In this document: piece after piece, positions 442 through 62,000 of the stretch
How the letters are laid out: each line of letters begins with the position of its first letter
How positions within the stretch are numbered: the stretch's first letter is position 1
Made by a program: the position numbers and the translations under genes
Assembly: GCA_905178155.1 (NCBI GenBank)
Contig: CAJINV010000001.1
Location: forward strand, 4,426,233 to 4,490,232
From: Amoebophrya sp. A120
Taxonomy: Eukaryota; Protista; Dinoflagellata
Direction of reading: 5' to 3'
Length of the DNA: 64,000 nucleotides
Notes under the pieces: model-generated
Told to the model about the DNA's origin: nothing
What the model saw: only the letters and a program-made list of their open reading frames with translations
Databases searched by the model: none

Positions 442-2600
442 TCATCGTTTTCGTTCCCGACTTTTTCTATTTTTCCGACAGCCAGCACAAGAAAAGAAGC
501 ACAGTGTCGCCGGCCCCAAATTTTTGCCCTCCTGGACCAGGTGCTGGCTCTGCAGTCGTTTTTTCCTTTTGATTTTCGTTTCCCAAGCAGCGTATGGCCA
601 CACGCATTCATCCTGGCCGCTTCTCCGTCTCTGCACGAGATCGTCGACCTTGGTCCAAATGCAATGGGGTTTCTGCGTTTCGCGCTCTCCCTCTCCCTCT
701 CGACGATGCGCGTCCCGGAATAAGCCGCTTCCGTAGGAGTTCTTACCCTCGTCTTGCTCTCCCTTGCTTTCCGCCGACCCGCTGCGCGGACGCAACTGCT
801 TCCACCATGCTACAGGATCACACACACTCCGGATTTGTGCCCTGCTCGGGGATCGCTGCCGCGTACACTCGTCGCGGGACTACCGAGTAACTGGGGGTCA
901 ACGTCTAGGTCGGCCTCCCGCGCGAGCTGTTCCGCAGCGTGCTGCAAGACAGTGTGCAACTCCGATTCTGTCAGAAATACCGCTCGCACGTCGTAAACAT
1001 ATATCAGTTGCAGCGGCTTTGCCTGTATGACCCGTCGAATCCTGCTGATGCCGTTCTGCGTCATCCCGAAAAGCTCCAGCAGCTCCGCGGCGTCTGCCCA
1101 CTGCACGGTCATCGGGCCAAGTGGAGGTTTGGAGCTGCTTTTCTTCCTCGGCGGTGCACCGGGTTCGGGAGCGAAATCTCGCCCGTCTCGGTAGACGACC
1201 TGCGTGTGATGAAGCAGAAAATTTCATACGGGGATAATTTCGAGCCAGAAACAGCTGCAACAGAAAAGATTGCCCAATATTTTTTCCTCACAAAACATTC
1301 GTGGCTGAGCAATCCGCATCAAAAATGAACTCAACTATTTACCCCAACTCGCCGCATCGCCATTTTCTGAAACAGTCTGCCAGAGTGGTGCGCGACGTAC
1401 TGATTTATGACTTGAGCCGGGTTGGCCGAACAGATCGCGGCGAGAAATTTCACTGTTTCAAACAGCTCTTCGACCGTCATGGAGGCGCTACCCACGGTTG
1501 TCATGATGAAATACAGCCGCGCCGCATCATCCTCGCTCAACGCGCCGCCGGTGATCTGCGCCAGAATCTCGCCCACGCTATCAAATGTAAAAATGTCTGG
1601 ATCTGGAAGGTTGCAACTTGTAATGCTAAATCTGCAGCATGCAAAAATCTGTGTTGCATGATTACCAAAAGTCGTCCAGTTTTGACCAAGTCGGGAGGGA
1701 GTTTCTCATGCAGGATGGGCATTTGAAAGGTCTCGCAGAATCTTTCGTGCTAGGTCCTGCATTCCAGACATCATAGGTCATGGAAAAGCAGCATGACAAA
1801 TCTCGCAATCTTCCAGACCCAGACATATTTGCGATTGATAGACGCGCAGCAGAGACAAATTCAAATCGCTGTACTTCACGTCTGGCGGAGTAGGTGGGAG
1901 CAGCAGTGTTGCGAGCCCGCGCTCGCAGAACAACTGAAACGCCCGACTGTCGCTCGACAAGAAGTCGTACAGCGAGCCTTGTTCTTCATCGGGGACCCAA
2001 GAGAGACGCAGACGCATGGTTGATTTTTAGTGCGATTTTGCGCAGAAATGGATTTTTTTCGTCCGCCTGTTGCTGCCGCTGCGTGTAAACTACTACAATT
2101 TTTGAAAACAACTCTAAGTACGCAAAAATGACGTCCTCTTGGGTACAGTACCATAGTCGTACACTACGTTTTTTTGGCTGCACCATCTCCCGTTGTATCA
2201 TCAAGATGCTTTCCTTCATCAATCTCTATCTCAAACTGAAGTCAAACAGAGGAACACCGACGAAATTTCCGTGCCGCGGTGGACGTTCCTTCCAAAGAAA
2301 GGAAAGCTGCATACTTTGGCTGCACTCTCCTGCAATTTTCTTTGTGCGTTTTCCAAGTAGCTTTTCTTTTTCGGTGATTTCTTGCTACCATGACATGGAT
2401 ACCATGCGTATTTCCTGCTGTACATACGACATCGGCAGAAGTGCTCCAAGCGATGAAACTCCTTCTCTACGTGGAAGAAGGTCCAGCAATGCAAAAAAAT
2501 ATTTTCTTAAATTTAAAGCATCAAAGGCAACCCCGGTTGCAGCCACTCGTGGATGTCGTCGAAACTGATGGCTTCTTTGGGTCGGTATGAAGAGAAAAAG
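442..2600 (-). CDS. multi-exon hypothetical protein; ends and exon joins uncertain
   Basis: Chain of protein-like minus ORFs (442-825, 810-1112, 1109-1312, 1331-1576, 1778-2017, 1986-2222). Removing element 1579-1840 plus one direct repeat joins ...DLNLSLLR to VGEILAQITGG... in frame. Confidence 0.5.
1579..1840. mobile_element. introner, family A (262 bp)
   Basis: TIR TATCAAATGTAAAAATGTCTGGATCTGGAAG ... CTTCCAGACCCAGACATATTTGCGATTGATA. Flanks CACGC/GACGC (4 of 5 match). Lies inside CDS; removal restores frame. Confidence 0.9.
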
Positions 2601-2609
2601 CCGGGTGTT

Positions 2610-3979
2610 TCATAGCAGCAGTCTCCAGTTTTCATCATGGCAAGCGCGAGAAAAATGAAAACGGACCTTGCTGCATGAAACACACCCAGCTTTTTCCGTC
2701 CATAGCTGGACACCCATGACCATGGTGTCGCTTATCACGCCGTCCTGGGTAATCGACTCGAAAATGAGCTCTAGATCCCACGCCTGCCACCTGATTCGCA
2801 TATTTTCGTTGCGGTCTTTGGGGAACGAAATGAAACAACAATGCTCTTTTCTGAAGACACCGACCCCACCTCTTTAAGCTTCTACTTGCAACTGGGTCAA
2901 AAATGCTGCACAATTGGAGCAGCGTAATACTTGAATCTGGGCTCCTTGTTGACCATGCGGCACATGTCTTGGAATTCTTCTTTCGTCAGTGCCTGTCCCC
3001 TGTATTTGGTAGAAAACTGATTGAGGAAGATAGCGAGGGATTCCTGCGACGCGAGCTTTTCGAGCAGGTAGCTCTCCACCTCCGGGTCGTAATTACGCAC
3101 AGGAAGCAGCATCTTCCCAGTTGGGTCTCTCCAATTCTGCAGTTTTGACCGGATTCCGTTCAGGGCGAAGGCTTTCTGGATACCTGCAGTTGTTGCATGT
3201 TTTCGTTTTGAAAACACCAAGTGGTCGAAACATACGCGTATACTAGTAATGCAATTCTTTAAGTTGTATCCTGAGCCTGACAAGAACCTACGTCTACTTT
3301 TCATCAGTTGAAATAAATCCTTTACCTGCAAGCAGGTTCAATGCTCCAATGGCTACGACGCCAAAGCCGGTAGCGTAGATGCAGACCTGGAAAAACCCAT
3401 CCTGTACGTCCGGATTTACCATGTTGAAGCAGTTGCAGCCGATGAAAATTATGAACAGGCCTTTGCCCATTAGCCGTGAGAGCAACTTTGCTCCGTAGTA
3501 AACCGCAGTTTGCGCCTCGTGGATACGACGGCTACCACCTGGGAGAAACGAATTCGATTGCTGATTATCGGGATAAATTTCAGAACCTTTTCCTTACATA
3601 GGGCGCGGCCATCCTCGTAGTGCAACGAAACTTCACATCCGTCATGGTGAAAGAGAAAAACGTGGTCATTTATGCATAGAAAACAACGTCCTTCAGTTGT
3701 ACCGTGATGTGACTCTCCGAGCACGAGTAGGCCGGAGAAGAAAAGCTGGTATATTTTCTCGATGAACATGACTGGCTCCATGATGACGCCCGCCGGGTAG
3801 TACATCAAACAGGCGATTGGCAGCGCTAGGCCCGCGATACCCGCGGCAAAGGTCAGCATCACCAAGAGCGATTCCACCTTTTCTTTCGGTCGCGTTGGCA
3901 GCACGGGTACCTGCCCGGCACCTACCGGACCGAACTGGCTCACCGGCGAGTAGCCGGGACCGCTTCCAGGCAGCTGCAT
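2610..3979 (-). CDS. COPI-associated (Tvp15-like) membrane protein with a soluble C-terminal extension, multi-exon
   Basis: Hydrophobic helices plus LSRLMGKGLFIIFIG, which resembles the COPI_assoc FL..GRG.FY.F.G motif. Exons 3470-3979, 3294-3485 and 2897-3331, with a GT-AG intron at about 3184-3325. Confidence 0.55.
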
Positions 3980-4537
3980 CTTCCTCCTTACGACACTTAC
4001 GAACTTGGTTGTTTCACAGGTTCAAATACGCTTGAAAGTAAAGCGCAAATTGTTAGCGCGAAGAAACCTATTTCTGTGTGTCTGTGCAATGCGGTACCAT
4101 GCATCCGCTCGTCTGGATTCTCAGCAGTCCAGCCCCTCAGACGTACCCGCGGACTTTCTACTCACCCAGTTGTACTCTCAATGAGGACCTCATATCAGGG
4201 ACAGGGACGGAGCTCGAGCTCGTCGGAATAAAGAAACTTCATCTAGGAAAAAGGTAGCTTCACACCTCTCTTTAGAATGAGTAACAAATTTGTTCAGCAA
4301 CTCGTCACCGCTCTACTTCCCTTACATCGCACAGCCGAGAGTACACCTCTATCTATCTCAACAGACACGCTTCAGAGAGTGGAAGCAGCCATGATTATCC
4401 GATAGGCACGGACCACACAAACTGGAAAAAGCGTACTATTTTGCAATTACCTCCGATGGGGAAAGTAGAGAAAAGCGCAAGAGATGACATAAGCAAGGAC
4501 TAATTTTCACCGTTCTCGTGTAGTAGAAGCGATACCC

Positions 4538-6861
4538 TCACGACATCCGGTAGCGGTACTGGTCTTTCTTTTCTTGCATGGACATCGGAGTTGCTTCCAA
4601 CTCTCCCGCGATTTTCACTTCTTGTTCCCGGTTCTCCAACATGAGCAGCACCTCATCCACGATCGGCAGCCAGGATTTCGGCAACAGCTCGATGCAAAAT
4701 TTGTACTCCTCGTGGAACCAGAGCGTCGTGACAATGCGTTCCAGCTCGTCGCGCTCGAAGAAGTCCTGCTCCTCGTGAAAGTACTCGAACAGCAGGTAGA
4801 GTATGTCCGCTCTTCGCTGTTCCCCCGGCTTTTCCCGCTCGGCGTCGAAATCTGGGACTTCCTCGCAATGCAGAAACTTGCACCGGACCATCCCGTAGAG
4901 AAACAGAATGACGTCCTTGCGGCCCATGTCGGAGACCCCGGCGGCCAAGCTCGCCCCGAGCCGTTCGAGAAGCTCGAGAAATTCCGTGTTGTCGAAATGG
5001 GGAAGCGCCTGCGCCAACCTAGCAAAATCCTTCGCGGTGAAGTTTTTCAGTTCCGTTTCGATCAGGTTCCGCAACGGCGGGATGACCCGGTCCAGCTGGT
5101 TGCACCTATCCCCCAGAAAAAGACCGACAGGTCAATGCAAAAATAAATAGACAAAAAAATCTGCATTGCATGCCCTAAACAGGATGTTATGGCCTCGCCC
5201 ATGACAGATTTTCCTGTGTATTTATTTTTGCATTACAAATATGACCTGTCGGTCTTTTTCTGTGGGATAGCACCGGGCGAAGACCCACAGCACCCGGGCA
5301 ACCTGGCGTGCGGGCATGCCCTTGATGAGCTCGGTTCGATGGAGCTCTTTCGCCACCACGTCGAGAAGCTCGTCGTGTATGATTTTCATCTTCGTCACGC
5401 ACCACAGGTTCGTGATTTTTACCTTAAATGGTTATGCATTTTTGTGAAATGGGAACTTGATCCGTTTAGGAGATGCAAATTGGTCTACTTCGTGGTGGAT
5501 ATCTTGATCTTCTATCACGCGATGACACTCCTATTAGAGAAGATCAACACGACACACTGTTGTACCTGCAACGGCACTTCGTGTATTCGCCGCAGAATTT
5601 CGGGCAGGAGACACGCCAACACGTCAATGTCGTGCACAGCGGTGGTGGATTGCGCCAGCGCGACGAGCATCTCACTGAGCTCCTGGGGATCGTACTCGCG
5701 CAGCAAAGCCTGCAACCGCGGCACCAGGACCTGCAAGACCTCGTAGTGCTGGATTTTGTTGTAGATGCGGATGATGCCGATCAGATTCAGCGCGTTCAGC
5801 TCGTCCATCACGTCGATCACGCGCTCGCCAAACATCTCGAAAAGCTCCGTGTCCTCTGGCAGCAGCTCGTGCATCGTGCTGATGGTTTCCACTAAATTCA
5901 ACCCGGAAAACATCACCATGCGGTATTTTAGCTGGATGTTTTGATACGGAGGAACTTCTCATTTCTTGTGATGCGCAAAATTCAGTACTTGTTCATGCGC
6001 AAAAGGGATTGAGCGGAAGGAAAAGGAGAAGGAGGTTGAGCTCCACCTCCAGTTGTGAAAGCCCCTGAAAAATAAAAGCTGAAGCAGTACCACCCTCGAA
6101 ATTTCCCGGCACATTCCCTTGTTTTATCAAATGTAAAAATGTCTGGGTCTGGAAGATTGCCAGGTTTGCCATGCACATTTTGCATGACTCCTGATGTCTG
6201 TGATGCATGCCCTAGCATCACAGATTTTGTGAGGGCTTCCTGATGCCTATACGGCATGACAAATGCTCTTTCCGTGTAGCAAATCTTGGACTCTCTTTGC
6301 TGCTCATGCAATACAGAGTTTGTTAGAATCCAAAATCAGCATGACAAGTTGGATTCTTCCAGACCCAGACACTTTTACAGTTGATATGTTTATGTGCGGC
6401 ACCATGGTATACGCTCGTGCGATCCGATTGATCTCGTCTGGCCCGTATCCCCGCGCGATGCAGCGGGAGATCTGCCATTCCAGGTGCGGCGTCAACGTGT
6501 TCTTTTTGTAGTCACTGACCAGACGCTTCTTCAAAACTGGCTGCTTCGTCCGGTCCTGCGTGTCGGCGGTCGTGGTCTCGTGTCGCCTGGCTTGCTTGTC
6601 GAAGAAAAAGGACGAAGTGCTGGAGCCCTGACCAGTCGCTATACTGCCACAAAGACCTCCTGTCAGAATTGGTGTGCTGAGACGATGTTGAACAAGTGCA
6701 GCTGGTGGTAGACAGTGACGCTTACATGCCGACGAAGAGCTCGCTGAAGAAGCGGATAAGGCTGTAGTTCCAGGTATCATTTGCGTTGCGCACGATTGGT
6801 ACTGCTCGACAGTCCGGATCCCGGTTGTGCGATGCAGCAAGTGAATTCGCGACGACTGCAT
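4538..6861 (-). CDS. helical-repeat (HPR/RAP-like) putative organellar RNA-binding protein, multi-exon
   Basis: Repeated ~37-aa amphipathic units (FSGLNLVETIST, LNALNLIGIIRIY, YDPQELSEMLVAL, FTAKDFARLAQAL). Ser/Arg/Thr-rich N-terminus resembles a transit peptide. Contains two introners. Confidence 0.6.
5107..5269. mobile_element. introner, family F (163 bp)
   Basis: TIR TATCCCCCAGAAAAAGACCGACAGGTCA ... TGACCTGTCGGTCTTTTTCTGTGGGATA. Perfect direct repeat GCACC (5102-5106, 5270-5274). Removal gives VFARC-NQLDRVIPPLRNLIET in frame. Confidence 0.9.
6125..6386. mobile_element. introner, family A (262 bp, opposite orientation to the 1579 copy)
   Basis: Family A TIRs. Direct repeat TGTTT (6120-6124, 6387-6391). 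Removal gives MVPHIN-KGMCREISR. Confidence 0.9.
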
Positions 6862-7460
6862 GGCTGCGAATCTGACGGGGACAGCCTGCACAGCGAAAAT
6901 CCCAGAAAGCGAAGTGCAAAGTCAGAAGACGGACGGCAAGTACTCCACTTTCGCAAAAAAATGAGCCCTACAATAGCATCTTGTCTTGTCAACAGTAGCT
7001 GCTAACGAGTGCAAAAACGATGACGATGCCTGCCATGCACTGACAGATATCTTCTTGACGACCAGACGATAGTAAAAACGACGACAAGCCGGGAAACACA
7101 GCCGCTGGACGAGCATTAGCGGATAGAGATATACTGCGAATTCGGCCGGGCTTGACAGAAGTCCCACCCACGGCATCAGGCGCTCAAGGTCAGCTGCAAA
7201 ATTTTTACCCACCGGTATGCTGTCTACGTCAGAAGGAAAGCATCACAAAATCCTTCCGATGAAATACCCAGCAAAATGTTAAGAAAAAAGAACGTGTAAC
7301 TGTGAGTGCATAATATGAAAAAGCTTAAGCTGCTAAACGAGTACATGCATTCGCTTGGAATATGCCACGATAAAAGGACAAGAGAAGAAAAACGTCGTAT
7401 GAAAGATCATTTTAGTATTCTCTAGACTAGCACTAGTTCTCAACCGAACGCAACACGCGT

Positions 7461-9838: not shown

Positions 9839-10064
9839 TTCAGAGCCATCTTTCTCAGAGTGTTCCTATTCATTCTGAGCCCATTCGAACTAAGACACAG
9901 CGTCGAAGGAATGCGTCACCTTCGTTAGTACCTTTCCAAATCCAAACTAAAAGCGAACACTTTTCCTTGCACAAACATATCTACTAGGCGCACTCGCGAG
10001 GCTCAAGGACAATGGGCAACGGACACAAACAACCAACAGCGCCACCAGTTTCGGGGCGAGTCAA

Positions 10065-12775
10065 TTAACTACATGGACGCCGACATACAAAAAAAGCAAA
10101 AGGCGGGATCCCCGGCCCTGCCGAGGCGACAAGCCCAAAAAAGGGCACGAGAAAAAGGCACTCGGGGAAGCGGAAGAACCTTCCCCGCGCCGAAGATATG
10201 CGCGCCTCGACCTGCCTCCATCCCGGCCTGCGCATCAGACAAAGCACAAACGGAAGGTCGGTCGGCCCCCTTCGGCGGCCCTTCAACTCCCCAAAGGCGA
10301 CAACCGAATGCGGCGGCAAGGGCATCTGCGCGCCGATCGCCTGCGGCGACCATGGAACAGGCCCGCAGCGGGCTGGGGCCAGCCAAGGCGTCGGGCCCAG
10401 ACGAAAACGGGGCGACCCGGCTGCGGGCGCACCTTGACGCCCACCCAGGGCGGGCGAAATACGAACGCCGGCGCGCCAATCTTGCCCAAGCGCCCAAGCC
10501 TCCGACGGGGCCCCTTTTCCTGTGCCCTGTTGTTGCAGGAGCGTCTGGTTCGGTTGTCCTGCTCGCCACCAGGTCGAAAGCTGGGCGGGGTGGCGCTGTA
10601 GCGTTGTAGAAGTCGGCCCCCACCAGGTTGACACGCCGCGGGGTCGGCCCGTGGTGAAAATACTCCGGCCCGGCTGAATAGCAACAAGGAGCGGGCGCAC
10701 CCTGTACAGTTCCGAGGGCCAGACGGCGGGCCACTCTGCTGCCTTGGCCTGGTAGTCCGCTGCCCTCGCGCGCCCGCTGCTTGCCCGGCTGGCCCCCTGG
10801 CGCGCAAAACGGCCCGGCGGCCGAAAAATTGGAAGCACCCGCGCGCCCCCCGCTGCTTCTTGGCGCGCCTGCGCAATGGGGCAGGGGCAAAACCCGGGGC
10901 GCCGCGCTTTGTTGCTTCGGCGCCAAGCCGGGCCACTTAACTCAGCCCCCAAAGGCGCTCCAGCGGTAAGTCCTATGAGACACGTCGCCAGCGTCTCGAC
11001 GACTTCTCCCGGGATGCCTCTCTCGAAGGCGGGGCTGGCACGAATCGCGGGGCAGCGCCCCCCTGAAATGCAGCAAAACCAACCGCCCACCACCCCCCCG
11101 GCGATTCGCGGCCGATCGCCAGGCCCCGGGCGCGTCCCCGTTCGTGGCAGGCGGCGGGCGCGCAAAGAAAGGCGCCGAGGGCGGACGCACGCCATCACAT
11201 GCGGCCTGCCGCCGAGGGTGCACGCGCCGACGGCGTCCAACGTTGTTAATCCGATGGCGAAAAAATCTTCTCACAGGAACACCGGCCCGAACGGACCACA
11301 CCCTAAGAAATAACGCACGGAATGTTAAGCGGCCCAGCGTCCTGGGTCGATGGGCGAAATCGTTCGCCGGATTTTGGCCCTAACGCTTTCGGGCCGAAGA
11401 ATCCACTTTTTTTTTGAAATTTTTTAAAATTTTCGAGAAGGGTAGCGGGGTGGCTCTTGGGCCGGGGGCGGGCTGGGGCCCGTCCTGCAGGCTGCACAAG
11501 AAGGCTGGCGGGATTTGGGTCGCTGCCTTCGGTGCTTCGCAATGGGATGAAGCAAAACACAAAGGCGCCACGCCGCACGGGCCCGGTATGCCTCAGGAGC
11601 GCGCGGGAGGCGACGCGCAGGCATGATGGACGTGGCTGCTCGACAACGCGGGCGCTCGGATGCGTTCGAATTGAAGCGAAGAACTTCCTTTGCGTGTGGC
11701 CAAGAAAAATTTCAAAAAAGTTTCGACTTGCCCAAAAAAAATTTGAATTTGGCCGGATAAAATTTCAAGAGGTGCGAAAAATGGCCAAAAAAAATTTCGG
11801 AAAATCGGCCACATTAGCAAAATCCCATTGGTTTTTGCAAATTGGCCACGTTCTAGAATTTTTTTCAAATTTTTTTTGCGCGCCTCTTGATTTTTCCCGG
11901 ATTTTTTTCAAATTTTTTCTGCGATTTTTCCTGGCCAAACCCAAAGAGAAATCTTCTGCGGCGGCAATGCGCCACAAGGGCGCCTCTGCTCCCCGACAGA
12001 AGAAGGCGCAACCCCACACGGATTTGCCACTCTGGGTTCTCATCACCAGCAGCGGAGGCCAAGAGATGTGGACCACCCAAGCGGGCAAATATGCGACACC
12101 TGCGCCCGGCCCTCCTCTGACAAACAGGGGCAAGAACAGACTCGGGAAATGCCTCACATAGGCCAGACCGTCGGGGAAGCAAAAAAATTCAAAAATTTTT
12201 TTTTGTGTTTTTTTTGGATTTTGTTTTTGCGCTATGTGGATTTTCCGAAATTTTTTGCGTTAGGGTGGAAATCCTGCGAAAAATCGGGCCCAAAATCTTG
12301 AAGGCAGGCCCCCCCCGGGTGGGGGCCTTGGCGGCCGCCTCGCCCTGTTTGCCCCGAAGGAACACGCTGCGCGCCCGCCCCAGCGGCACAGGGCAACGGC
12401 GAAAGGACTGCGGGGGCCCCCGTGTCTTCCTCCGCCAATAGGCTGCGCGCGAGGATGCGGAGCATTGCCATGCCCATGCATCCCAGAAACCCCGCGGCGG
12501 CGAAGTTTGGGCCTCCGGGGAACGACTGCGCAGGGGCAGCGCTGAAGTGCATCGCGGTCCGCTCCATTGATTTGGGCCCGCGTCCCCCGCGGCCTGCGCT
12601 GCGCAGCGGCGCCCTGGATAGCGAGCGCCACGACCTCGCGCGGCGAGGCGCGCAGCTGGGGCGCTGTAAGCCGTGGCCCATCCTCAGGCCCGCACCACCA
12701 ACGGCGCCCCGGCATGCCGTGGCTCCGCCACCTCTTCTGCATTTCTGTAAGAAGGGGGTAGGCCATGCCCTGCGT
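10065..12775. other. anomalous GC-rich, homopolymer-biased block with A/T-run islands; probably a garbled gene
   Basis: Abrupt composition change with few TA dinucleotides, many G/C runs and A/T tracts at about 11400-11435, 11700-11935 and 12180-12300. Long ORFs in many frames, none clearly protein-like. Confidence 0.6.
11698..11936. repeat. imperfect foldback (~240 bp inverted repeat)
   Basis: Paired segments GGCCAAGAAAAAT / ATTTTTCCTGGCC, TCAAGAGGTGCG / CGCGCCTCTTGA and GCAAAA / TTTTGC. Confidence 0.7.
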
Positions 12776-12777
12776 CC

Positions 12778-15548
12778 TCAGCCTAACCAGTTCAGCTGAA
12801 AAACGAACACACGCGGTCTCACTAATGCAAGCGGAACACTGGCTAGATCTTGTTCGGCTTCCGCCAGTTCAAAAATGTTACTCATTGAACAGATAAGTCC
12901 TAATTTCTGGACTTCTTCCCTAATGTGGTCTCGACCGTAATTAAGTGCCAACAATATGTATGTCGCGCACCCTTCAGGACACCTTCCTTGTTATGTTGCT
13001 CTTCCTCAGGATAAATTACAATTCAATTTAGTAACTTCGAGATCGCGTTTGCTTGCATCTGTGGATTTCCAAAATGCTGTCAGCCCTTTGCCACCGGCAC
13101 CTTCAACCACAAAAGCTGTAGTTCCTGATGTTTCCCATCCTTCATCTTCTGAACCGCGTCCACCAGCGTTTGGTACTCAAAAACAGTTTTTACTTTCTTC
13201 TCTGCCTCCACAAAGGAATTCTGCGCCTCCTGCACAACATTTCCCTTGAGCAACACCACGCCCAAGTTGAACCAAAGTGTAAATTCGTCCGGATGTAGTG
13301 ACAAAGCTTGCTGCAGCAAGTCTACCACCCGCTGCAGACCCGTTTGGCCGCCTTGAGGGAGTTTGTCCGGTGAAGAGGTAGCCAGATGGAAAATCCCGAG
13401 CGCCAGGGAATTGTACACGTATGCGAAGTTAGGATTCATCAGCTGTAACGCCTCTTCTAGTATGGGCACCGCTTCGTCGTAGGCACCTACGCAGGAGAGG
13501 GCGTATCCAAAATCATTGTTGAGGAGAAACTGATTGTGGTCGCCAAAGCCAATGCCGTGACCTGGAGGGAATTTTCGAATTTGAGTGCAACATGAATCAC
13601 TATCACATACATCACTTCGACCTAATCAATTAACATCACTGTAAGCGCCCAAAAATCGTCAAACAGTGTCTCTGAGTACGTGATAGATGTCATTGTACCG
13701 TTATTGATCTTGATGAAAATTTTCAGCCCGGATTCGCAGTCGCCTTTCTCTAGGTGTATCCTGGCCATGCAGTAATCAGACATGGCGTTGTCGTCAAATA
13801 CGTCCAATGCTTTTTGGTAGTAATCCAGCGCCAGATCGTGGTCTCCTCGCGCCTGCAGCAAAACCGCGAATTGGTGCAACACCTTCGCACTGCGCGGCTG
13901 CCACTTCGAGGCCTTCGCGTCCTTCTCGAACAGTACCTCCTTGCTGCGCCAGTGGGTTGTCCGGATGTACGCGACGTACATGAAGTACACCAAATACACC
14001 ACCTTCGCGAAGCAGAGCACCGAAACCGAATGCCCGACCACGTGCGAGGTTGGTTTCACTGGCCTTCGGCCTTCGCCACTGTTTGCGATTCGTTGCGGTA
14101 ACCCGCGGCCAAGAGTCGCTGTCAAAATCCTCCGCAAGAGCAGCGGCGCGAGGTTTTCTGGCGAAAGCAGGCGGACGACCAGCAAGCAGCTGCCCACTGT
14201 GATTGGGTAGAGGAGTCGTTCCCCTATCGTTGTTCCGACCAGGAAAAAAAGATTACTTGCGGGAACGAAGGGCACTACTATCATCGCGGCAGCGAAGTAG
14301 TCAGTCACGATGTTTTCGTTCTGCACCATCAGGGCGACTTGCTGGTTTGCAGTTAGCAGGGGAGGGGTATTTGTTCCTTCTGCTGCCGTACTACTCCCGT
14401 CCCCCTCTCCTCCAGACTCGGCCGCGGACGCAGTGGATGATGAAGGTGTGCTACAATTGTAGAGCAAATCGCCGTATTTTCTCGCCCTTCTCCTCTTCAA
14501 GACATCCCCCTCCACTTCGGGCGTCCTTCTGGGTATCACCCGAAAGAACATGCCGACGAGGAAAGCGTAGGCAGAAAGGATCCCCATTACCCGCAGGTCC
14601 CATTGCTTCTGAAATAGCAACGGTAGACTGTCGTAGCTGTAGTCCCAACTGAGGTTCCAGGGAAAGATGAGAAGTTGCCCGTAGATTTGGTGGTGCAGCA
14701 AGTAGCTCCAAAACCTGACCTGAATGTCGTCTTGGTACCGGACCGGCGTATCGACGTACCCAAAGTCCGCGTGGGTGCCCTGGACATAAGCGGACCGGAG
14801 AGCGAAGACGACGAGAAAAAGACCGAGGAAACCAATTCCACGGAACCATTTTTTCTGCACCAGACACAGGAAGGCGACGAGAATCGGAAGGGTGAAACCT
14901 GTAGTGGTTTGGTTCGAGTTGTAGTGCATGACAGAGGCTCATGCAAAGACAAGGTAGACAAAGTAACTCTGGAAGCTTCTGTCCTGAAACTCCTCTAATA
15001 ATACCTGTTTCCTTGCACAGCCCACTGAGCACGGTGCACACCGCTACCCGGAGAAAGTTTTCTGAGTCCGCACCGAGCACGAAGAACAGCGTTGCGGCCG
15101 AATCCGCTCGGCCCACGAGGTAGACTATGTTCTCCACGTGCACGGGGTGGACGGCGAAGAGGTACGCCGCGAAGACGTTGTGCCGGAAGAACCAGCATCG
15201 CTTCACGACCAAACACGTGAGCGTGTGGATCAAACAGTTGATAAACCGCAAACTCGGTAACGGGTCGTCTGGGAAGAGGCAATACGACAATCGAAAGCTG
15301 TACGTGATCAGCGGTCGGTAACTCTTGTGCGTCCAGTGGATGCCGTCCGTCGGCCAGAGATCCTGGCCCCAGAAGTCGTGGATGAGCACGTCGTACCAAG
15401 TTGACTTCGAAAGGTCGGCAACATCTTGGTTCCTGGTTACCGCAAACCCCTCGTCAATGTAATTGTCACGGAAAAAGATACACGCGTAAAAAGGTAGAGT
15501 GAGAAGAACAATGATAGCGTCCGTGTTTTGCCACGAGGACAGCAGCAT
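12778..15548 (-). CDS. TMTC-family protein O-mannosyltransferase (DUF1736 + TPR), multi-exon
   Basis: Motifs DE..AV..N.DV, HDFWG, HKSYRPL, LFAVHPVHVENI...VGRAD, KETG, LSWDYS, PFVPASNLFFLVGTTIGERLLY, followed by TPRs. GT-AG intron at about 13562-13698. Last exon (about 12778-13006) is tentative. Confidence 0.9.
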
Positions 15549-24149: not shown

Positions 24150-26200
24150 TGAACCTGACGCACAGTGCTGCGGCCGGCGAATAAGTAAATCCACCCCCTT
24201 TCTTTGTCACCCCATTCTCTTCAGCGCGTTGCGTAGGGCGGATACCGAACCGACTGCAAGCCCATCGGCGCCCTCCTGCGCCCACGAGAATTGATGTCGC
24301 CCCTGGTGAGGTCCCGAATATCGTCGGCGGAAAGTTGCGTAATGTAGGCCTTCAACCGCATCACAATCACGAAAATGTACATGTTCACCATCGCAAAAAG
24401 GAAGAGCTGTGATAAATTTTTGTTATATCTTCATGTGGCTTCTTGCAGCTCTTGTGAAAGATATAAATATAGGTGGGCTTTTTGTTTTTGTTTTTTCACT
24501 ATTTCATCAATGCAGAAAGATTTTTCATCAACACTCGATACCCAGAAAAACCGCGAGCTTTGGTTGTCCTCCCGCTCTTGTCCTTCGTCCTCGGTTTCGA
24601 ACACGATGAAGGCGCGAAGACCTAGTTCGATGAAGAGGTACCCTTGGTAGACGGTCAGCCAGGGGGCGCTGAATTTCCGAGCGCCAACGAAGCCCGAGAG
24701 ACCCAGCGGGGCTATCATAGCCAGGGCGGTCTTGTACGGCGACGGGTACATAATGGAGACAAAGGTGAACACGAAATTGAGCAGCACAATGCACTGGACG
24801 GTGCCGGAGTAGTAGAGGACTCGGATCTGAAATGGTGTGGGCGAAGAATATGCGAGATTGGATATGAAGTTCTTTGCATTCCAATCGCAATTTCTCGTTG
24901 AAACGCGCTTCGTACTCGTAGCAAACTACATGCAAAAAAAAAAAAGCGACTCGTATGAGTCGGCCTTTTTCAAGCGACACACAAACATCGACGTGTTGTA
25001 GCATCTACAGCTGTACCAGCCTCTGCTCCTCCCGCGAGGGCGCGGTGGCGAGAAACAGGATCGCGCCGCTGGTGGGATCCCCGGGGGAGTGCGCGATGAT
25101 GCGGGCCCCCTGGTGCGGACTTTCCGTCGGCACCCCACCGGCGATGCCGTCGCGGTCCACGGCGTGCAAAACCGGGTTTCCGATCACCATGTTCGGTTAT
25201 CAACTGCAAAAATGTCTGGGTCTGGAAGAATTCATGTTTGTCATGCTTGTCTGGCATGACTCTTAAATCTGTCATGCACATTACCCAAGAGCTCCGTTTT
25301 TCTGTCATGCAGGAGCGCAGTTTGTCATGCAGAATAGGCAACACCTAGGAGCTCAGAAGCTTGTCATGCTGAGCCAGCATCTGTAGCCTCATCATGAGAC
25401 GCCACCCAGCATCACAAGTTTCCAGACCCAGACATTTTTACATTTGGTATCGGTGGGGGTGGTCGCATCTCCTGTGCCTGCAGTCGCCGGGCCATTTCCG
25501 CGTCGGCCGTCTCCTGCTGCGAGGCGGCAGTCGCCGTATCAATCGCATATCAACTGTAAAAATGTCTGGGTCTGGAAGAATGATGCTGCATTTGGATTCC
25601 AAGAAAATCTGTATTGCATGAGCAGCAAAGGGAATGCAATTTTTGCTACGCGGAGAGGGCATTTGTCATGCAGAATAGGCATCGCGAAGCCCTCAAAAAA
25701 TCTGTGATGCTAGGGCATGCATCACAGACATCATGGCCAATGCAAAACATGCATGACAAGTCTCAGAATCTTCCAGACCCAGACATTTTTACATTTGATA
25801 TCGCCGGGGGTCGTGCCATGACGGGCGACCCCTGCGGCGGGGGCCCGGGTTCTTCGCCCAGCCCACGGGTGGCGCTGCTCGGGGAGGGAATGGTGGTGAG
25901 GATGTAGCCCTGATTCGCAGGTTGGCCGGACATATGAAATCGGGACGTCGCACCTCCTGCGGCGGGGGAAGTTGAACTAGAGGCGAGCGGGTACATGACG
26001 GGAGCAAAGGATGGCGGGCTATTTGCCCTATTTCTTTCCTGTTCTGGTGCATCGCCGTCATTTGCTCCTGTTGTACTAGTATTGTTGTCCAACAACTCTG
26101 GGGGCGCCGTGTGCTGTCCTGCGGAGGTATCGAAAGTCGACTCGTCGTACTGCTGGAGCTGCAAGACGCCTGCAGTTCTATCAAACTCCCCATGCTCCAT
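24150..26200 (-). CDS. multi-pass membrane protein with a Pro/Ala-rich N-terminus, multi-exon; 3' end uncertain
   Basis: Removing two introners gives ...MARPPAI-DTATAASQQETADAEMARRLQAQEMRPPPP-NMVIGNPV.... Downstream TM helices LLNFVFTFVSIM, LAMIAPLGLSGFVG, YLFIELGLRAFIVF and LFAMVNMYIFVIVM. Confidence 0.65.
25198..25449. mobile_element. introner, family A (252 bp)
   Basis: TIR TATCAACTGCAAAAATGTCTGGGTCTGGAA ... TTCCAGACCCAGACATTTTTACATTTGGTA. Direct repeat TCGGT (25193-25197, 25450-25454). Frame restored on removal. Confidence 0.9.
25548..25800. mobile_element. introner, family A (253 bp)
   Basis: Family A TIRs. Flanks TCGCA/TCGCC. Removing 258 bp restores frame. Confidence 0.9.
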
Positions 26201-27363: not shown

Positions 27364-30300
27364 TTACTCCGTCGCCGCCGGTGCAGCGTCCGCAGCGGGT
27401 TCTTCGGCGGCTGGGGCGGCTTCCGTGGCTCCGGCAGCGGCCGCTGCTTCCTCCGCTGCTTTCTTTTGCGCTCGCTTCGCCGCAACCTCCTTCTGCGCAG
27501 CCTGTCGTGCGTTTCATTTTAGTTGGAATTGCGTAAACTTTTTCGTTCCCGGCGAATAAAAGGTTCCTTTCTCGAACGGCGCATTTTTGCGACGTCAGTA
27601 CTAGTAAACTTCCAGCACAGCAGCCAGGACTTGCGCAAAAAAAAAATTCAAAATCGTACTTTTATTGAGGCAACCATATTCACGCAATCCCCAAAAGTAC
27701 CTTCTGTCTCTGCTTCGCCTGCATGCGCGCGGCAGCGGCGTTTCCCTCGTCTCCGAGCTCTTCCGCCCAGGCGGCGATCTCGGCGGCCTCCTTTTCCGCA
27801 GCCTCCTTGGCTCGCGCTTCCTCGAGTTCCTTCCGTTTCTGTTCCACCTCCTTCTTGGCGATTTTTTGGCGCTGCTTGGCCTGCATTTTCAATGCGGCCC
27901 CATTGGCGTCGTCGCCCAAATCGGTCAGCCACTTGTCGAGCTCCGCGTTTTCCTCCTCCGCCTGTCGCTTCGATTCCTCTAATTCGCGCCGTTTAGCCTC
28001 GACCTGTCGTGATTGCGAGGCGTTGAGGTACAGAGAATTTTTCTAAAAAGACACAACTAGATCAACATCATAAGGAGAGATCGCACGTAAGACGGTACTC
28101 ACCTGCTTCTTCGCCATTTTTTGTCTCTGCTTGGCCTGCATTTTCATGGCAGCCGAGTTTGCGTCGTCGCCCAATTCGTTGAGCCACTTATCCAGGTCGC
28201 TTTCCTCGCTCTTGGCCTCCTGGGCCTGTCGCTGTGCCTCTTCCAGCTCTCGTCTTCTAGCCTCGACCTGAGAATCAATTTATGTAGTTGTGGTCAACAT
28301 GTTGTAAATGCACGTTCTTTGTTATTCTACAACTCCACACAGAACCTTGTCGTCGAGCAGGCGCTTTACGTATGATCTATTACTTACTTTCAGAACGAAT
28401 GCAGTATAACGGTGAGAGCTGCATCGTTTCTTCTATCAGTACCTGCTTCTTGGCCATTTTTTGTCTCTGTTTCGCTTGCATCTTCAAGGCCGCTCCGTTG
28501 GCGTCGTCTCCGAGATCCGCCAGCCACGTGTCGAGTTCGGCGGCTTCTTCTATAAACTGCTCAGGTGTTACAATCTCAAACGTTACAATAGAACCTGGAA
28601 TTTGTGTTGCAAGAAGTGCATTAATATCTAGCCAACTCTCATAGGATTGCGCATGACAAGTTGTGGAGTGGTCCCAATCCGCACTACAATCTGGCGAAAT
28701 TTGTATTGCAGAAAGTGGAATGCTGTCCGAGTCTGTCATGCTCATCATGCAATACAAAACCCAAATTCTATTTCAACGTTTGAGATTGTAAAAACGTTTG
28801 AGCAGGTCATATCTTCCTGCGCGATTTTCTGGGCCTCCTCGAGCTCCCGCCGCCGGGCGTCCACCTGCTTTTTGGCCAGCTTTTGTCGCTGTTTGGCCTG
28901 TATCCTGTGCAAAAGTATCCCACTCGTAGTAATTGCTATGGTGCATGACAAATATCCCTCTTTAGGTAAAATAGCATTACAAATTGCATTTTTCTTCTTG
29001 CAAAAATTTGTGATGCAATTTTTACTAGTACGATACTTTTGCAATGCATAGCCTGCATCTTCAGGGCGGCGGCGTTGGCGTCGTCCCCGAGCTCGTCGAG
29101 CCACTGGTCCAATTCATTCGCCTCCGTCTCTTTCTGCGCCAACTCGAGTTCGCGGCGCCGAGCTTCGACCTGACCATGTCAGTTTCGCAATGGGAATTTT
29201 GATACGGCGTAGTAGCCACGGTAAGCTGACTTGTGAGAGTGTAGTACTCTGGTTCTGCAGGCGGCCAGAGTGATCTGCTTATCCTTTCATCTACGGTAGA
29301 TGAATAAAGGAATACACCACACAGGTCTGTATCTGTAACTAATTTGCACTATCGAACCCGAAACTGCTCTACCTGTTTTTTCGCCATTTTTTGTCTCTGC
29401 TTGGCCTGCATTTTCAAAGCAGCAGAGTTTGCATCATCGCCCAGCTCACCGAGCCATTTATCCAAGTCCTCGCCCTCTTCCTGCTCTGCCTGCTGTGCTG
29501 CTTCCAACTCTTTTCTGCGGGCTTCGACCTGAGAGTTGAAGCATCACGCATCTGGATGTAAAAATTTTCAGCCACGAACGGATTAAGTTACAAGTAGAAC
29601 GAGGGAGGATGTTCACACCAACCATGTAGATGTTGTAGGTAGTTGTATCATTCTTTCACATTCTTGACTAAGAAATCGAAACCTGTTTCTTGGCCATTTT
29701 TTGTCTTTGCTTTGCTTGCATTTTCAATGCCGCGACACTTGCGTCGTCGCCGAGGTCCTGGAGCCAAGCGTCGAGTTCCTTCGTCTCCTCGGCCTGCTCC
29801 TTCGCCAGTTTCTGTGCCTCTTCTAATTCCTTCCTTCGGGCTTCGACCTGACAAGATTTATTCGCAAAGTGGCGCAATTGATTCATCGCGATGTTGTGTA
29901 TCAGACAACCCATCGCGATCATGTTGTCTTGTGATAGACATTGCCTTCACCATTGAGTTTGAGTTCGCTGTGCATTCATCCATGAGTCTGCTTCTCACAG
30001 ATCCCTACATTCGCTTTCAATGCCTAAAAGTCAAACATCTCATATTGATTCCAAAAACAAGCCGCACCTGCTTTTTGGCCAACTTTTGTCTCTGTTTCGC
30101 CTGCATTTTCAATGCGGCGGAATTGGCATCGTCGCCCAGATCGGCAAGCCACTTGTCGAGGTCTTCTTCCTCGTTGGCAGCAGCACGCTGTGCCTCCTCC
30201 AGCTCTCGTCTGCGCTGCTCGACCTGGTGGTGATGGTGCCAACAAGTGTTCCATGATCAACTGACATTTTCATGTAAGGTACAACGCGCCGAAAACAAAA

Positions 30301-31286
30301 AAGCAACAATCACAGCCAACGAGAAACATCCACCTATACCTGCTTCTTCGCCTGCTTTTGTCGTTGCCTGGCTTGCATTTTGATTGCGGCGGCGTCTGCG
30401 TCCGCACCGAGCCCTGCGGTCCAGGCGACTAAATCCTCCTCACTGCTACTTGCCGGTGCCGACTCCTCCTTCTTCGGTTCTACCGTAACTGCCGTCGGTG
30501 CCCGCGCGGCCTTCTTCGCGGCGGTCTCCTTCCGCGCCTGCTTTGCGCGGTACATGGCCTGCACCTGCGTCGCGGCCGCGGCCTCTTCCTCGCTGTGGTG
30601 CGACATTTCCTCTTCGTCGATTTCTTCGTGTAGTCCAAAGTCTTCCACCGACCCGTGCGTGCCGAACCCGCGCCGGCAGTGCTGCTTGATCCAGTTCGAC
30701 TCGTTGGGGTCTTTTACCCGTCGGACGCGTTTCATGGTCAAATAATCGTACAAGATACCCTCCTTCGCGGAGTAGAAACCCTCGCCCGTGTCGTACATGC
30801 CTGGTGGCACCGCGACGGACACGCCATCGGTCAGCTGCGTCTTCCCTGCGGGCTTCAAACCCGTGTTCGTTTCGCTGAAAAACCGGCGGTCCTGGGCGGA
30901 CAGGTAACCCCAGTTCTCGTCCTTGAACTCGAGCCCGTCGGCAAACTGATACCTTGGAAAATTCTTGTATCATAATTGCATTTGTTTATTCTCGAGTTTT
31001 TGATTTACGAATTTATTGAAGGAACGAAAACGAATGTCAAGAACATCGTTGTCGAAAACAAACAGAATAGATACTGTCCCGAAATGGCCACGCCTCGCTC
31101 CCATTGCGCCACGTACTTGGCCCCGTGCACGTAGATCATCGTGCCTTCGCCGTGGAACTCGCCCCTGCGGAACTGGCCCTCGTAAATGGTGCCATTCGGG
31201 AACTCGTATTTCCCGGGTCCGTCATACCAGCCATCTTTGATCTCGCCGGTATACGTGCTCCCCGTCCAAGTCGTTTGCGTCGGCAT
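27364..31286 (-). CDS. MORN5-like protein with nine C-terminal 52-55 aa IQ-like repeats, about 11 exons
   Basis: N-terminus TGSTYTGE..DG..., GEFHGEGT, QFADGLEF...NW.Y....DRRFF.E...GLKPAG.TQLT, PPG.YDTGEGFY and WI..HCRRG follow the MORN5 pattern. Then repeats of WL.DLGDDANAAALKMQAKQRQK.AKKQVE. Confidence 0.85.
28551..28811. mobile_element. introner, family C (261 bp)
   Basis: TIR TATAAACTGCTCA..TTACAATCTCAAACGTT ... AACGTTTGAGATTGTAA..TGAGCAGGTCATA. Direct repeat TCTTC. Removal gives AQEE-AAELDTW. Confidence 0.9.
28901..29050. mobile_element. introner, family D (150 bp)
   Basis: TIR TATCCTGTGCAAAAGTATC ... GATACTTTTGCAATGCATA. Direct repeat GCCTG. Removal restores the repeat consensus MQA-KQRQ. 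Confidence 0.9.
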
Positions 31287-59000: not shown

Positions 59001-62000
59001 TTCCGACAGAATCGCCAGCGCAACCTCCGCTTGCGATTCCCAGATGCTAATGTCCGCGTCGATTTCGTACGCGAGGAATTCCGGGTAGTCCTTTGCGTTC
59101 CAACCCGCATTGTCCGGTCCGTTTTCCAATTCCGCTTTCAACAGCAGCTCTCCCTTCTCCTCCTGGAAAAAGAACTCCAGACACCGTCGAGCGCGCTGCA
59201 AATGCCGCAACGCGATTGCAAACGACCCGGCGAGCTTACTGAAAACGGTGTTGAATTGTTCGTTATTTTCAACAGCATGTTGCTCTGGAGTAGTTGTAGC
59301 TCTTGCTGCCGCGCCAGTTGACGTTATCCGTGTGATTTGCTGGCGAAAGAACCTGGTCAAGACTTTGTACGGTGTGTTATCAGCGTCCATGCGAGCGGCA
59401 GGGAGGAGACCGATTTTGTTTTCTGTTCCGGAAGCGGCGTGAGACCGGAGCTTCAGCCACAGCTGATCTACCGTTTCCTTCGCCTTCTCTTGGTAAGCGA
59501 GTAATTGTAATCGCAAGACGTGGCGGAAGTGCACGTCTTTGTACAGCTTCAGTGGTATTGAGGACGTTGCTTTCGAAGAGGAAAATGTCATGGCCCACGA
59601 GCTCTGCAACTGGTTCATCAGCATACCCGAAATTTCCGCGTAGGACTCGTCTTGGGGCAGGGTTAAAGGTAGCTCTTCTGTCAAAACGTTAGCACCTTGT
59701 ACTTGTTTTTGATTGTTTTCGGCGAACTTCTCGACGGAGTTTGCAGCCGCTTCGTCGAGCTTTAACTTGAATCGGTCCTGCAATTCGAAGCGTTCGCGCC
59801 AGTTCTTCTCATACTCGTTGAAGTGCGACAGCGCGCTGTCGATGCCGATCGCGCCCGGAAAGCCGCCTCTTGTCCACAAATCTAGATTCTCTGGCACAGG
59901 CTGTTCCTCTTCTACCGTAGTGCCAGACAATGATGCAACAAGCTGCTGTTCCGTTACCGCCTTTTCCGCACCATAGCCCTCCACATAACACGCCTCCGAC
60001 CCAGACACGTAGACTTTTCGTCTGATGCCATCGTCGTCTGCTTTCGAAGTTGTACTAGATCCGCCATTCGCCCTGGAAAAGTCATCTGGTTTATCTTTCG
60101 ATGCCCAGGCCAGCATGTCCTTGCTATTGCCCTTCTGCACCCCGAGAAACTGCGCCATCCGCTCGGTGAAGGCCTTGATGAAGTCGTGCAGCTTCTGGTT
60201 TTGCCGCCACGTGAAGAAGACGGAGTTTATCGCTTGACACAGCACCCGGTGGTTGTGTTTGGGGATGATGTTACCGTACACGTGCTTTCCACACATGTCC
60301 GGTCGCAAGCTCTTTTCGTTGTCCCAGCATTCCTTTGCGTAGCCAAGTAGCTATCCTATGTAAAAACGTACCCACCCCATAGTCAAGATGGGGGATTGGC
60401 TAGACAAATCCACAAGTTTTGGCTGTCTTGCATGACAGATTTGGACTCGTAGCGTAGTGCTGTTTGAGCTAGCTCAGCAGCATCACAGACCTAGTATATC
60501 ATGCTGATTGGAGCATGACAAATTGCAAAACACGATTGGAAAATGCTTCTCATGGGGCTCCGCATGAGAAACAATTTCAGCATGCAGATTTGCATTACAA
60601 CTCTGGTGTGGATACGTTTTTACTCAGGATAGCAGCGCGTTTAGCGTCATCCCGCGGTCGGTCAGGTACTGGTCCGATTTGCTGAACACCGTGTGGGCCT
60701 TGCTCTGCCGGTTCTGCCCATCGATAGACCCTAAAATCGCCCGCATCCCCTCCCGCGCCACGTCGTCGCTGGCGTGCGGACCAAAGCGCCCCGGCGGGAG
60801 CGCCAAGAAAGGTGTGAGCGTGGAAGGAGCACCGGAGGATTTTCGACGCCCGGTGAAGTTGATACTCATAAATTTCTCGTCCTTCAATTTCGTGCGGTTT
60901 GAGGGGCAGGAGATTTCCGCCCCAACGGTGTTCAAATCGTTCCAGTTGCCGAACAGATTCGAGGCCGCGCCCGTGTGCATCGCCTGGAAGGTGGTTTTCA
61001 GCTGGTCGGCGGAGGAATTCACTAAATCCACCCGTGGCGGACGCCACACGCGGATGTCGTCGACGAAGTTTACAATCGTCTGCAGCACTGGCCCGTCGTG
61101 GAACTCCGCCGCGCCGTCGCCCGGCGCGTGGTACCGCGGGATCTCCGGCGCTTCCAAATCGGAGAAGAAAGAACTGTTCTGTGCCACGACCAGCAACTGC
61201 ATCAAGTAGTCCGTCGCGCACATCTGCACGGCGGCCGGAGCCGCTTTCGAAATCACCTCGTCGCCCGTTGCGTTAACGTTGTTCCTCGCTTTCTTCATCG
61301 GGATGGATTGCAAGGCGGCCAGGTAGGTGATTAGATAGCCAAACCCGGCTTGGGACTCGTGGTGGTGGTACCATTCCGCCCAGCGGGACCGCGGACAGCA
61401 GTGGACTCGCGCCAATTCGTACATGTTCAGCCAGATGTCGTACAGGGGAAGATCCACCATAGCTCCCTCCTCATTGTAAGTCACGGCGAGCGCCGACACC
61501 CAGCCGCCGAACAAATCAGAAGGACAAGGGTCCTCGCCCGGTGGGACGAGAGAATCACGTCCAGAAAGAGGATTCTTATCGGCACTCCTTGGCGGAATGC
61601 ACTCCTTGCCAAACAGGAGCCCGAGCCCTCCGGCCAAAAAGTTATCGACGCCAGTCAGCTTCCCGGAGATCGCGCTGGAGAAGAACAAATTTTTCACCGA
61701 CGAGCACACCCCGGACGCACCGTGCTGCTGGTACTTTCCCCTCAAATGCGCCAGGAGAAAGTCGCAGCTTCCCCCAGGGAAGGTAGCGACGTTGTGCCGC
61801 TGGAGCTGGAGCAGAAACCCGTGCGCCTGCTCCTCCTTCCGGCGGGCCTCGTCGTTCGCCTCTTGCATGGCGTTCACAGTGGGATCGATGTCCTCCTCAA
61901 ACTGGAAGTTCTCGATGCCGTACGGGTTCGCCTTGTCCTTCTTTTTCTTCTTCCCTTTTTTCTGATCATTTGACGACGCAGATTTACCTTGTCCCTTTTT

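Follow-up and report, generated by a model that had tools for sequence, protein, structure and literature searches.

Hairpin introns, probably transposon-derived, with TAT...ATA ends in coding exons of Amoebophrya A120, and a likely register for their removal from RNA

Introner elements with inverted repeats (IR) and direct repeats (DR) are known in Amoebophrya, as the initial annotation of this locus noted, and were described in the same organism by Farhat et al. 2021 (PMC7789003). The A120 IR families begin with TAT, followed by seven looser bases and then at least three A, and the introners have DRs of 3-5 nt (5 bp in the legend of Fig. S19) and no internal transposase; the authors also rule out general mobilisation by transposases. 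The same source reports A120 to be without U1, with U2, U4, U5 and U6 present, and finds a DR/IR layout like that of the hairpin introns in 15% of canonical A120 introns. Amoebophrya splices out tens of thousands of non-GT-AG introns, whose borders the describers left undefined. Gozashti et al. 2025 (PMC12130899) list one A120 family, fam38, as "Ginger, 5-bp TSD, TA/TA termini", with terminal inverted repeats (TIRs) and integrase-like homology; it is the one printed lead for a transposase. In the 50 of 58 A120 rows covered, most other families are classed as unknown, with automated target site duplication (TSD) calls of 2-6 bp, and one A120 introner family, fam65, ends in GG/CC with a TSD of 8-9 bp.

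We analyzed a window of 64,000 nucleotides, the whole stretch of DNA under study, from Amoebophrya A120; a dynamin exon in it is 100% identical to an A120 protein, and the annotated A120 protein P0122 gives a like match. The initial annotation had proposed that twelve elements of several families, all in coding exons, share one end rule, TAT...ATA with a 5-bp direct repeat. All twelve were present as claimed, one with the end GTA; the repeat was perfect in eight and had one mismatch in four (1579, 25548, 43158 and 60352), and among the repeat lengths tried (2-8), 5 alone fitted all twelve. The A-run, at positions 11-15, was clear in 10 of 12 and weak in 28551 and 54505. Scanning the window gave 13 matches, namely the twelve and one pair that is probably due to chance; 60 dinucleotide shuffles of it averaged 0.07 and never exceeded 1. 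Six further elements had been overlooked, one of which starts CAT; two of these (42782 and 52010) were discovered through their RNA joints. The elements are as follows.

1579..1840, minus strand: family A, 262 nt; repeat 4/5; interrupts a 142-aa minus-strand frame
2586..2704, minus strand: overlooked element, 119 nt; repeat 3/5; 78-aa frame once removed
5107..5269, minus strand: family F, 163 nt; repeat 5/5; homologous proteins cross the +5 joint
6125..6386, minus strand: family A; repeat 5/5; orientation opposite to 1579 and 39407
25198..25449, minus strand: family A, 252 nt; ends GTA (one end TAC); repeat 5/5
25548..25800, minus strand: family A, 253 nt; repeat 4/5; RNA contig pieces begin at 25800
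28551..28811, minus strand: family B, 261 nt; repeat 5/5; in a repeated exon of a probable calpain-like gene
28901..29050, minus strand: family C, 150 nt; repeat 5/5; six sister units empty
39407..39668, minus strand: family A; repeat 5/5; RNA contig skips 267 (262 + 5) nt; canonical register impossible
40135..40327, minus strand: older overlooked element, 193 nt; repeat 2/5; removal gives a 420-aa frame
42144..42340, minus strand: older A-like overlooked element, 197 nt; repeat 2/5; unambiguous RNA joint (GT...GC)
42445..42704, minus strand: older A-like overlooked element, 260 nt; repeat 2/5; unambiguous joint (GT...CG); end pairing weak
42782..42986, minus strand: older overlooked element, 205 nt; one end CAT; repeat 3/5; 210 nt skipped
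43158..43328, minus strand: family F, 171 nt; repeat 4/5; 176 nt skipped; paralog site empty
52010..52185, minus strand: older overlooked element, 176 nt; repeat 0/5; unambiguous joint (GT...CC)
53487..53748, minus strand: family A; repeat 5/5; 267 nt skipped; orientation opposite to 39407
54505..54810, minus strand: family D, 306 nt; repeat 5/5; 311 nt skipped; in a DUF3638/DUF3645 gene
60352..60631, minus strand: family E, 280 nt; repeat 4/5; 285 nt skipped; three possible registers, none canonical

Removing each of the twelve with 5 nt restored an open minus-strand frame in 12 of 12, as the initial annotation had stated. Beyond the frame, support came from RNA joints for 39407, 43158, 53487, 54505 and 60352, from the annotated A120 protein P0122, identical across both joints, for 25198 and 25548, from repeat units and an A25 ortholog for 28551 and 28901, and from homologous proteins for 5107 (alignments spanning the +5 joint, 16; +4, 4; +6, 1); 1579 and 6125 are supported by their open frames. 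At 40135 an RNA piece stops at 40129 and its remaining 162 nt fit 40328-40489, which would place the far side of the joint there. The claim that all elements are flanked by a 5-bp repeat stands for the chosen twelve but is limited to them, because the six overlooked elements, with decayed repeats, match at 3, 2, 2, 2, 3 and 0 of 5 positions. The terminal triplets of most young copies were paired in the predicted folding, and a search of the window against Rfam gave no matches.

Beyond the window, we surveyed at least 145 loci of a second assembly (502 kb, JACKZZ01 contigs); these were selected by the family-A end, so families distant from family A are under-sampled. They held 221 oriented copies among the matches listed (177 perfect, 30 with one mismatch, 14 more decayed). 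Among these matches, 200 of 222 exact 5-bp repeats sat at TAT/TAT, as against 34 scattered 6-bp repeats; 69 of 73 independently framed sites needed five bases kept, modulo 3; and the target sites (n = 177) showed no base preference. The pattern held across at least ten multi-copy families, in line with one rule uniting families, but it is not universal, because the published A120 family fam65 ends otherwise; in strain A25 the ends are TTA. Family A is repeated in the genome, as seen from these loci and from excess depth in a DNA-like run, X1 (flat depth ~45); among the matches listed, its 65 oriented copies divide into 30 and 20 of either orientation, with 15 uncalled. End variants were lopsided, with changes at positions 1-2 numbering one at the 5' end and seven at the 3' end, and TAC changes five and two (Fisher p = 0.04 for the loci listed, 0.015 with the window), an asymmetry that is post hoc and small and in which TAC copies may share an ancestor. 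L074 (a probable false join of singleton-like length), L113 (shifted end) and L052 2086 (504 nt, against a 400-nt limit) were omitted from this count. A bias of TATG versus TATC to the 5' side was rejected (18 vs 22, among the matches listed), and a drift of decayed copies to GT-AG gained no support: three of the six decayed window copies start with G, and the loci show no trend (G at +1 in 57/177 perfect, 9/30 one-mismatch and 3/14 more decayed copies, among the matches listed).

The 5-bp repeat is a true target duplication, because a single copy of it stands at the empty sites seen among sister repeat units and in a paralog; at 28551, five sister units are empty, each with one copy of the site. 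TIRs, lack of coding capacity, a TSD of constant length and single-copy empty sites are the features of MITEs, or non-autonomous TIR elements. No transposase was found in the window, as the initial annotation had noted: among 251 references (ORFs of at least 100 aa), Pfam gave no match to a transposase or integrase family. Nor was a transposase found by Pfam in 124 of the 175 loci ORFs of at least 200 aa, among the matches listed, and neither the window nor the 502 kb of loci showed an autonomous partner sharing these ends. Long same-ended elements carrying an ORF, which the initial annotation had suggested seeking, did not emerge; six perfect-repeat copies of 457-972 nt are ordinary members of their families with inserted non-coding sequence, and another long pair in the loci, the seventh, was a false join. 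An integrase-type transposase whose gene lies elsewhere is likely to have spread the elements, as suggested by fam38 and by the TA..TA ends of IS3EU/GingerRoot; a single class might stand behind the families, as the initial annotation inferred.

We next consider removal from RNA. The evidence consists of transcript contigs from two samples (four runs, X3-X6) of one study, in which minor isoforms are therefore invisible; the runs were counted as RNA because canonical introns are skipped and two contigs have poly(T) ends. Retention in transcripts, which the initial annotation had named as contrary evidence, was not what we found: RNA joints skip the elements, and all nine listed joints remove the element length plus 5 nt. 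The three unambiguous joints (42144, 42445 and 52010) all read N-TAT...ATA-NNNN on the gene strand, so that the intron extends 1 nt beyond TAT on the 5' side and 4 nt beyond ATA on the 3' side (the 1/4 register). This was seen in each of the four runs, and so in both samples, for 42144 and 42445 and in three runs of one sample for 52010. This register is allowed in 6/6 ambiguous joints, including that of 60352. Family A is spliced both ways round (39407 and 53487). These elements do not have the GT/GC...AG borders of a U2 spliceosomal intron; such borders are possible in one of nine RNA joints (43158, GT-AG in the 1/4 register). The suggestion that the excision machinery reads both ends and duplication was borne out for the ends, which predict the cut, but not for the duplication, because 52010, with a repeat identity of 0/5, is cut precisely. 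N-TAT...ATA-NNNN is likely to be the rule that the splicing machinery reads. The 1/4 register is not stated in the literature found by searches that covered mainly open-access text and 50 of 58 Gozashti A120 rows.

Because all three exact joints begin G-TAT, the 5' cut could be an ordinary choice of GT, and in copies without G before TAT (60352 and 40135) the data place the cut either directly at TAT or 1 nt ahead of it. These observations suit a process with no fixed register, in which length plus 5 nt is removed at a position that depends on the neighboring bases (GT if available) and 1/4 is limited to old GT-starting copies; the legend of Farhat Fig. 3, too, describes splice sites whose position varies with respect to the hairpin (PMC7789003). 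Yet the 3' cut falls exactly 4 nt past ATA in three copies where the intron ends are GC, CG and CC, so that neither an AG nor a matching repeat could guide it, and 42144 was offered an AG end 1 nt past the element that went unused. We regard a variable register as improbable, and infer the same 1/4 register in young copies.

Ciliate-IES-type systems also have TA-type ends and short direct repeats, which counts for excision at the DNA level; we weighed this together with joining via direct-repeat homology in reverse transcription. The joints of X1, on which DNA excision bears, are those among the matches listed. However, X1 contigs span four old elements intact, without gaps, the same contigs skip canonical introns, two of them having poly(A)-type ends, and repeat homology is absent from the precise joint of 52010. 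Both routes therefore appear highly improbable.

We propose that the non-coding hairpin elements in A120 exons, with their TAT...ATA ends and 5-bp duplication, owe their spread to an integrase-type transposase whose gene lies elsewhere, and would be removed by a hairpin-guided spliceosome that lacks U1 and measures from the TAT/ATA ends. The paired ends may bring the exons together, and N-TAT may stand in for the organism's GTA(T/C) donor; in favor of a spliceosome, 9 of 12 canonical introns in the window start GTA. The lopsided end variants, the snRNA set of A120 (U2, U4, U5 and U6 without U1) and the DR/IR layout of 15% of its canonical introns count on the same side. Taken as a whole, with cutting at 1/4, this is the explanation towards which we lean slightly, a U1-less spliceosome being our best guess at the machinery. 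A pure hairpin model is weakened because 42445 and 52010 are precisely spliced although their ends fold poorly. The first A of ATA as a branch point fixed at -7 gained no clear support: A stands at -7 in 3/12 canonical window introns (at -8 in 6/12), with no single branch distance, and two copies among the loci matches listed end GTA at the 3' side; a canonical-intron predictor recovered 2/12 known introns and was discarded. The two spacers, 1 + 4 nt, sum to the 5-nt stagger, so that an insertion anywhere in an exon, whichever way it points, would leave no scar on removal; this would account for the tolerance of thousands of copies in coding DNA, a transposon filling exons without protein cost. 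The chances seem to us evenly balanced for the broader claim of a genome-wide second splicing code, N-TAT...ATA-NNNN, its 1 + 4 matched to the stagger of one integrase-type transposase class so that insertions either way leave no scar, and measured from the end triplets by a U1-less spliceosome or a new nuclease-ligase.

Among described transposons, fam38 is ~808 bp long with ORFs, whereas the window elements are 119-306 nt without ORFs. IS3EU/GingerRoot elements have TA..TA termini (TAYGG..CCRTA in rust fungi) on long TIRs, insert without preference for a target sequence and have an integrase-like DDE enzyme (PMC10045372, PMC6839031, PMC12730594); the elements here share the TA..TA termini but have a 5-bp rather than the usual 6-bp TSD. 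The TG..CA termini of Ginger1/Ginger2, which have a 4-5-bp TSD, differ from TAT...ATA, and the 5-bp TSD fits Ginger2.

The window elements resemble published A120 introners in their TAT-starting IR, A-run, DR of 3-5 nt, non-canonical borders and repetition, and the end rule as the initial annotation framed it was already known, since TAT with an A-run and 5-bp repeats appear in Farhat 2021 (PMC7789003). There the border is left unknown or variable and the DR given as 3-5 nt, whereas here the repeat is strictly 5 bp with empty sites. Added here are RNA joints that remove the element plus 5 nt, at 1/4 where readable, and a duplication that is dispensable for splicing.

A dedicated non-spliceosomal nuclease and ligase could read the same N-TAT...ATA-N4 code. 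G or AG is unneeded (GT/GC-AG borders, in any register, are possible in 16 of 177 oriented copies, among the matches listed), and there is no drift to canonical ends. SOS splicing likewise removes exonic TIR transposons at the RNA level at non-GU-AG sites, triggered by paired inverted repeats, with RTCB ligation and a dependence on AKAP17A, CAAP1 and RTCB, but it is imprecise and leaves indels (PMC12779559); in A120, removal is exact in 9/9 contig joints, with one joint per element in contigs, where rare variants are dropped. Weakly paired old copies are still cut at 1/4, and the 5' end is similar to the GTA donor of the organism itself. We consider a nuclease-ligase possible, if rather unlikely, and keep the U1-less spliceosome as the preferred reading.

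The layout is mirrored by the nonconventional introns of Euglena (Nomura et al. 2025, PMC12501133), for which the authors favor non-spliceosomal factors and circular products, a further point for a nuclease-ligase. Both systems have a paired triplet at fixed spacers, a MITE-like origin and no GT-AG. The Euglena code, 5'-N3-CDG...CH'G-N5-6 followed by a purine, differs from N1-TAT...ATA-N4, which has no purine rule; A120 elements do not carry that code, and an exon-start purine, present in 110 of 177 copies among the matches listed, is unneeded. The Euglena code was tested by knock-in, whereas that of A120 comes from transcript contigs. A fixed register, if true, makes lariat or circle positions, the key three bases and the correction of gene models directly testable, and would be the second paired-triplet-and-spacer code after Euglena.

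We scanned the window twice, once for inverted repeats with no assumed end sequence and once by the TAT…ATA plus 5-bp rule, and together these scans recovered all twelve elements of the initial annotation. The rule matched 13 times in the window, whereas 60 shuffles gave 0.07 matches on average. The flanking repeat was perfect in eight of the twelve elements and had one mismatch in the other four, and among lengths of 2 to 8 only 5 suits all twelve. Excising the element plus five bases gave an open frame in every case, as had been reported, in host genes that all lie on the minus strand. Only A-A and F-F pairs were similar over their full length, though several families were alike over the first ~14 bases. 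We found six further elements with decayed repeats:

Further elements with decayed repeats (window coordinates or start)
2586, minus-strand host, found from sequence
40135, minus-strand host, found from sequence
42144-42340, minus-strand host, found from sequence
42445-42704, minus-strand host, found from sequence
42782, minus-strand host, found from RNA joints
52010-52185, minus-strand host, found from RNA joints

All genes with a Pfam match or RNA joint (TMTC-like, dynamin, MORN, thioredoxin/Erv1 and DUF3638/DUF3645) are on the minus strand, which fits earlier descriptions of co-oriented clusters in Amoebophrya. The dynamin gene has an exon that matches an Amoebophrya sp. A120 protein at 100% identity, and a second gene of the window likewise matches an A120 protein. 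A short near-perfect palindrome (52409-52449) lies upstream of the gene carrying element 52010. Separately, a GC-rich block (10000-12850; about 61% GC across 10001-12000) contains inner A/T-run inverted repeats (11351-12292 and 11678-11956); it had no Pfam or Rfam match and no terminal inverted repeat with duplication, and is possibly a foreign insertion or structural repeat.

Empty sites show the 5-bp flanking repeat to be a target duplication. One unit of a repeated exon houses elements 28551 and 28901, and five and six sister units, respectively, have a single copy of the site. These exons (27400-30970) are each bounded by canonical introns at an identical position; the homolog in Amoebophrya strain A25, P0121, carries PF00612 and PF00648, which we take to be IQ and calpain. 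Likewise, the paralog of the gene with 43158, 42445 and 42144 is empty at the corresponding sites. These tandem paralogs (39100-40860 and 42040-44140) have open frames of 420 and 403 aa after element removal; one acquired two elements and the other four different ones, making the pair useful for insertion dating.

A scan with a family-A end yielded at least 145 loci (502 kb), all belonging to a single public assembly; their copies reach 97% identity to those of the window, and the sample is biased towards neighbours of family A. The 531 distinct inverted-repeat pairs of ≤1200 nt in this sample gave 222 positions with exact 5-bp flanking repeats, and 200 of these lay at TAT/TAT; 6-bp repeats were found at 34 scattered positions. 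A TAT-like filter yielded 314 elements (repeat perfect in 242, at least 4/5 in 280). All ten multi-copy families had TAT consensus ends, extending the proposed end rule across families, and eight had an A-run. The target sites in this sample showed no base preference. Frames called independently for the two sides required five bases to be kept, modulo 3; a first model gave this result at 46 of 50 sites and a second at 69 of 73.

Insertion would be the work of a DDE transposase that acts in trans and cuts with a 5-nt stagger. As initially noted, no transposase was found among the Pfam-scanned ORFs of the window, nor in a Pfam scan of 124 of the 175 long ORFs in the loci, where longer copies carry non-coding inserts only. 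One 972-nt family-A copy (L054:4001-4972), flanked by a perfect 5-bp repeat and carrying a non-coding insert, lies next to sequence coding for RNA polymerase Rpb1; an essential gene may therefore tolerate long copies. Another (L056:3533-4028) is enlarged by an A-rich tandem repeat and retains both ends.

The RNA evidence consists of contigs from runs X3-X6 (two samples, one study), which we treated as mRNA because they lack canonical introns and two of them terminate in poly(T). All nine element joints among those listed take out the element's length plus 5, confirming removal from transcripts, and family A is spliced in either orientation. Contigs of X1, a DNA-like run of flat depth, span four of the old elements without interruption, pointing to removal at the RNA level. 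Three joints leave no sliding room (42144, GT…GC; 42445, GT…CG; 52010, GT…CC), and all three cut 1 nt before TAT and 4 nt after ATA on the gene strand. The other six listed joints all permit this 1/4 register: at 43158 only 0/5 or 1/4 is possible, 1/4 giving GT-AG, and at 60352 three positions are possible, none canonical. G precedes TAT in all three exact joints; where that G is absent, the data narrow the cut no further than to 0 or 1 nt ahead of TAT. The repeats of 52010 share no matching base, yet its joint is exact, so the duplication cannot guide the cut. The suggestion that excision machinery may read the end rule is half right: the TAT and ATA ends predict the cut, and the direct repeat is not needed. 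We propose a candidate splice code, N-TAT…ATA-NNNN, that does not depend on the duplication but whose spacing fits the duplication's length.

We favour removal by a U1-less spliceosome, a machinery we infer for a register seen in three copies; it would cut 1 nt before TAT and 4 nt after ATA. A120 lacks U1 and retains U2, U4, U5 and U6, as stated in Farhat et al. 2021 (PMC7789003); N-TAT resembles the local donor (GTA starts 9 of 12 canonical introns); and tolerance is asymmetric, with T-A kept and TAC tolerated at the 5' end and outer-base changes tolerated at the 3' end (p = 0.04, post hoc). TAT pairs with ATA in the folding of most young copies, so that 1 nt and 4 nt stay outside the stem. 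Among the 177 oriented perfect copies in the loci, only 16 could be GT/GC-AG in any register. Against a spliceosome, repeat decay in the loci brings no drift towards GT or AG, two precisely cut copies pair weakly, and the 12 canonical window introns share no single branch distance, while contigs cannot show lariats. Separate, non-spliceosomal machinery might act instead, as proposed for the nonconventional introns of Euglena, a close parallel whose authors favour it (PMC12501133). SOS splicing could serve as a further model, but is described as imprecise (PMC12779559).

The system itself is already known. Farhat et al. 2021 (PMC7789003) describe A120 inverted-repeat families with a TAT start, then seven looser bases and at least 3 A, and repeats of 3-5 nt (5 bp in the Fig. 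S19 legend); the end rule is therefore already published. They leave the border position undefined, and searches of openly available article text on the subject showed no statement of the 1/4 register. Our addition is the candidate code N-TAT…ATA-NNNN. Another Amoebophrya strain is reported to use canonical introns (PMC12005148, PMC11282704). The initial interpretation is partly supported: the 5-bp rule spans ten families, but A120 fam65, with GG/CC ends and an 8-9 bp duplication (Gozashti et al., PMC12130899), falls outside it, so TAT…ATA does not cover every A120 family. IS3EU/GingerRoot elements are described with similar TA..TA ends, though with a 6-bp rather than 5-bp duplication (PMC10045372, PMC6839031, PMC12730594). 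A120 fam38 is listed as ‘Ginger, 5-bp TSD, TA/TA termini’ with integrase-like homology (PMC12130899), making an integrase-type enzyme behind the insertions a fair lead.
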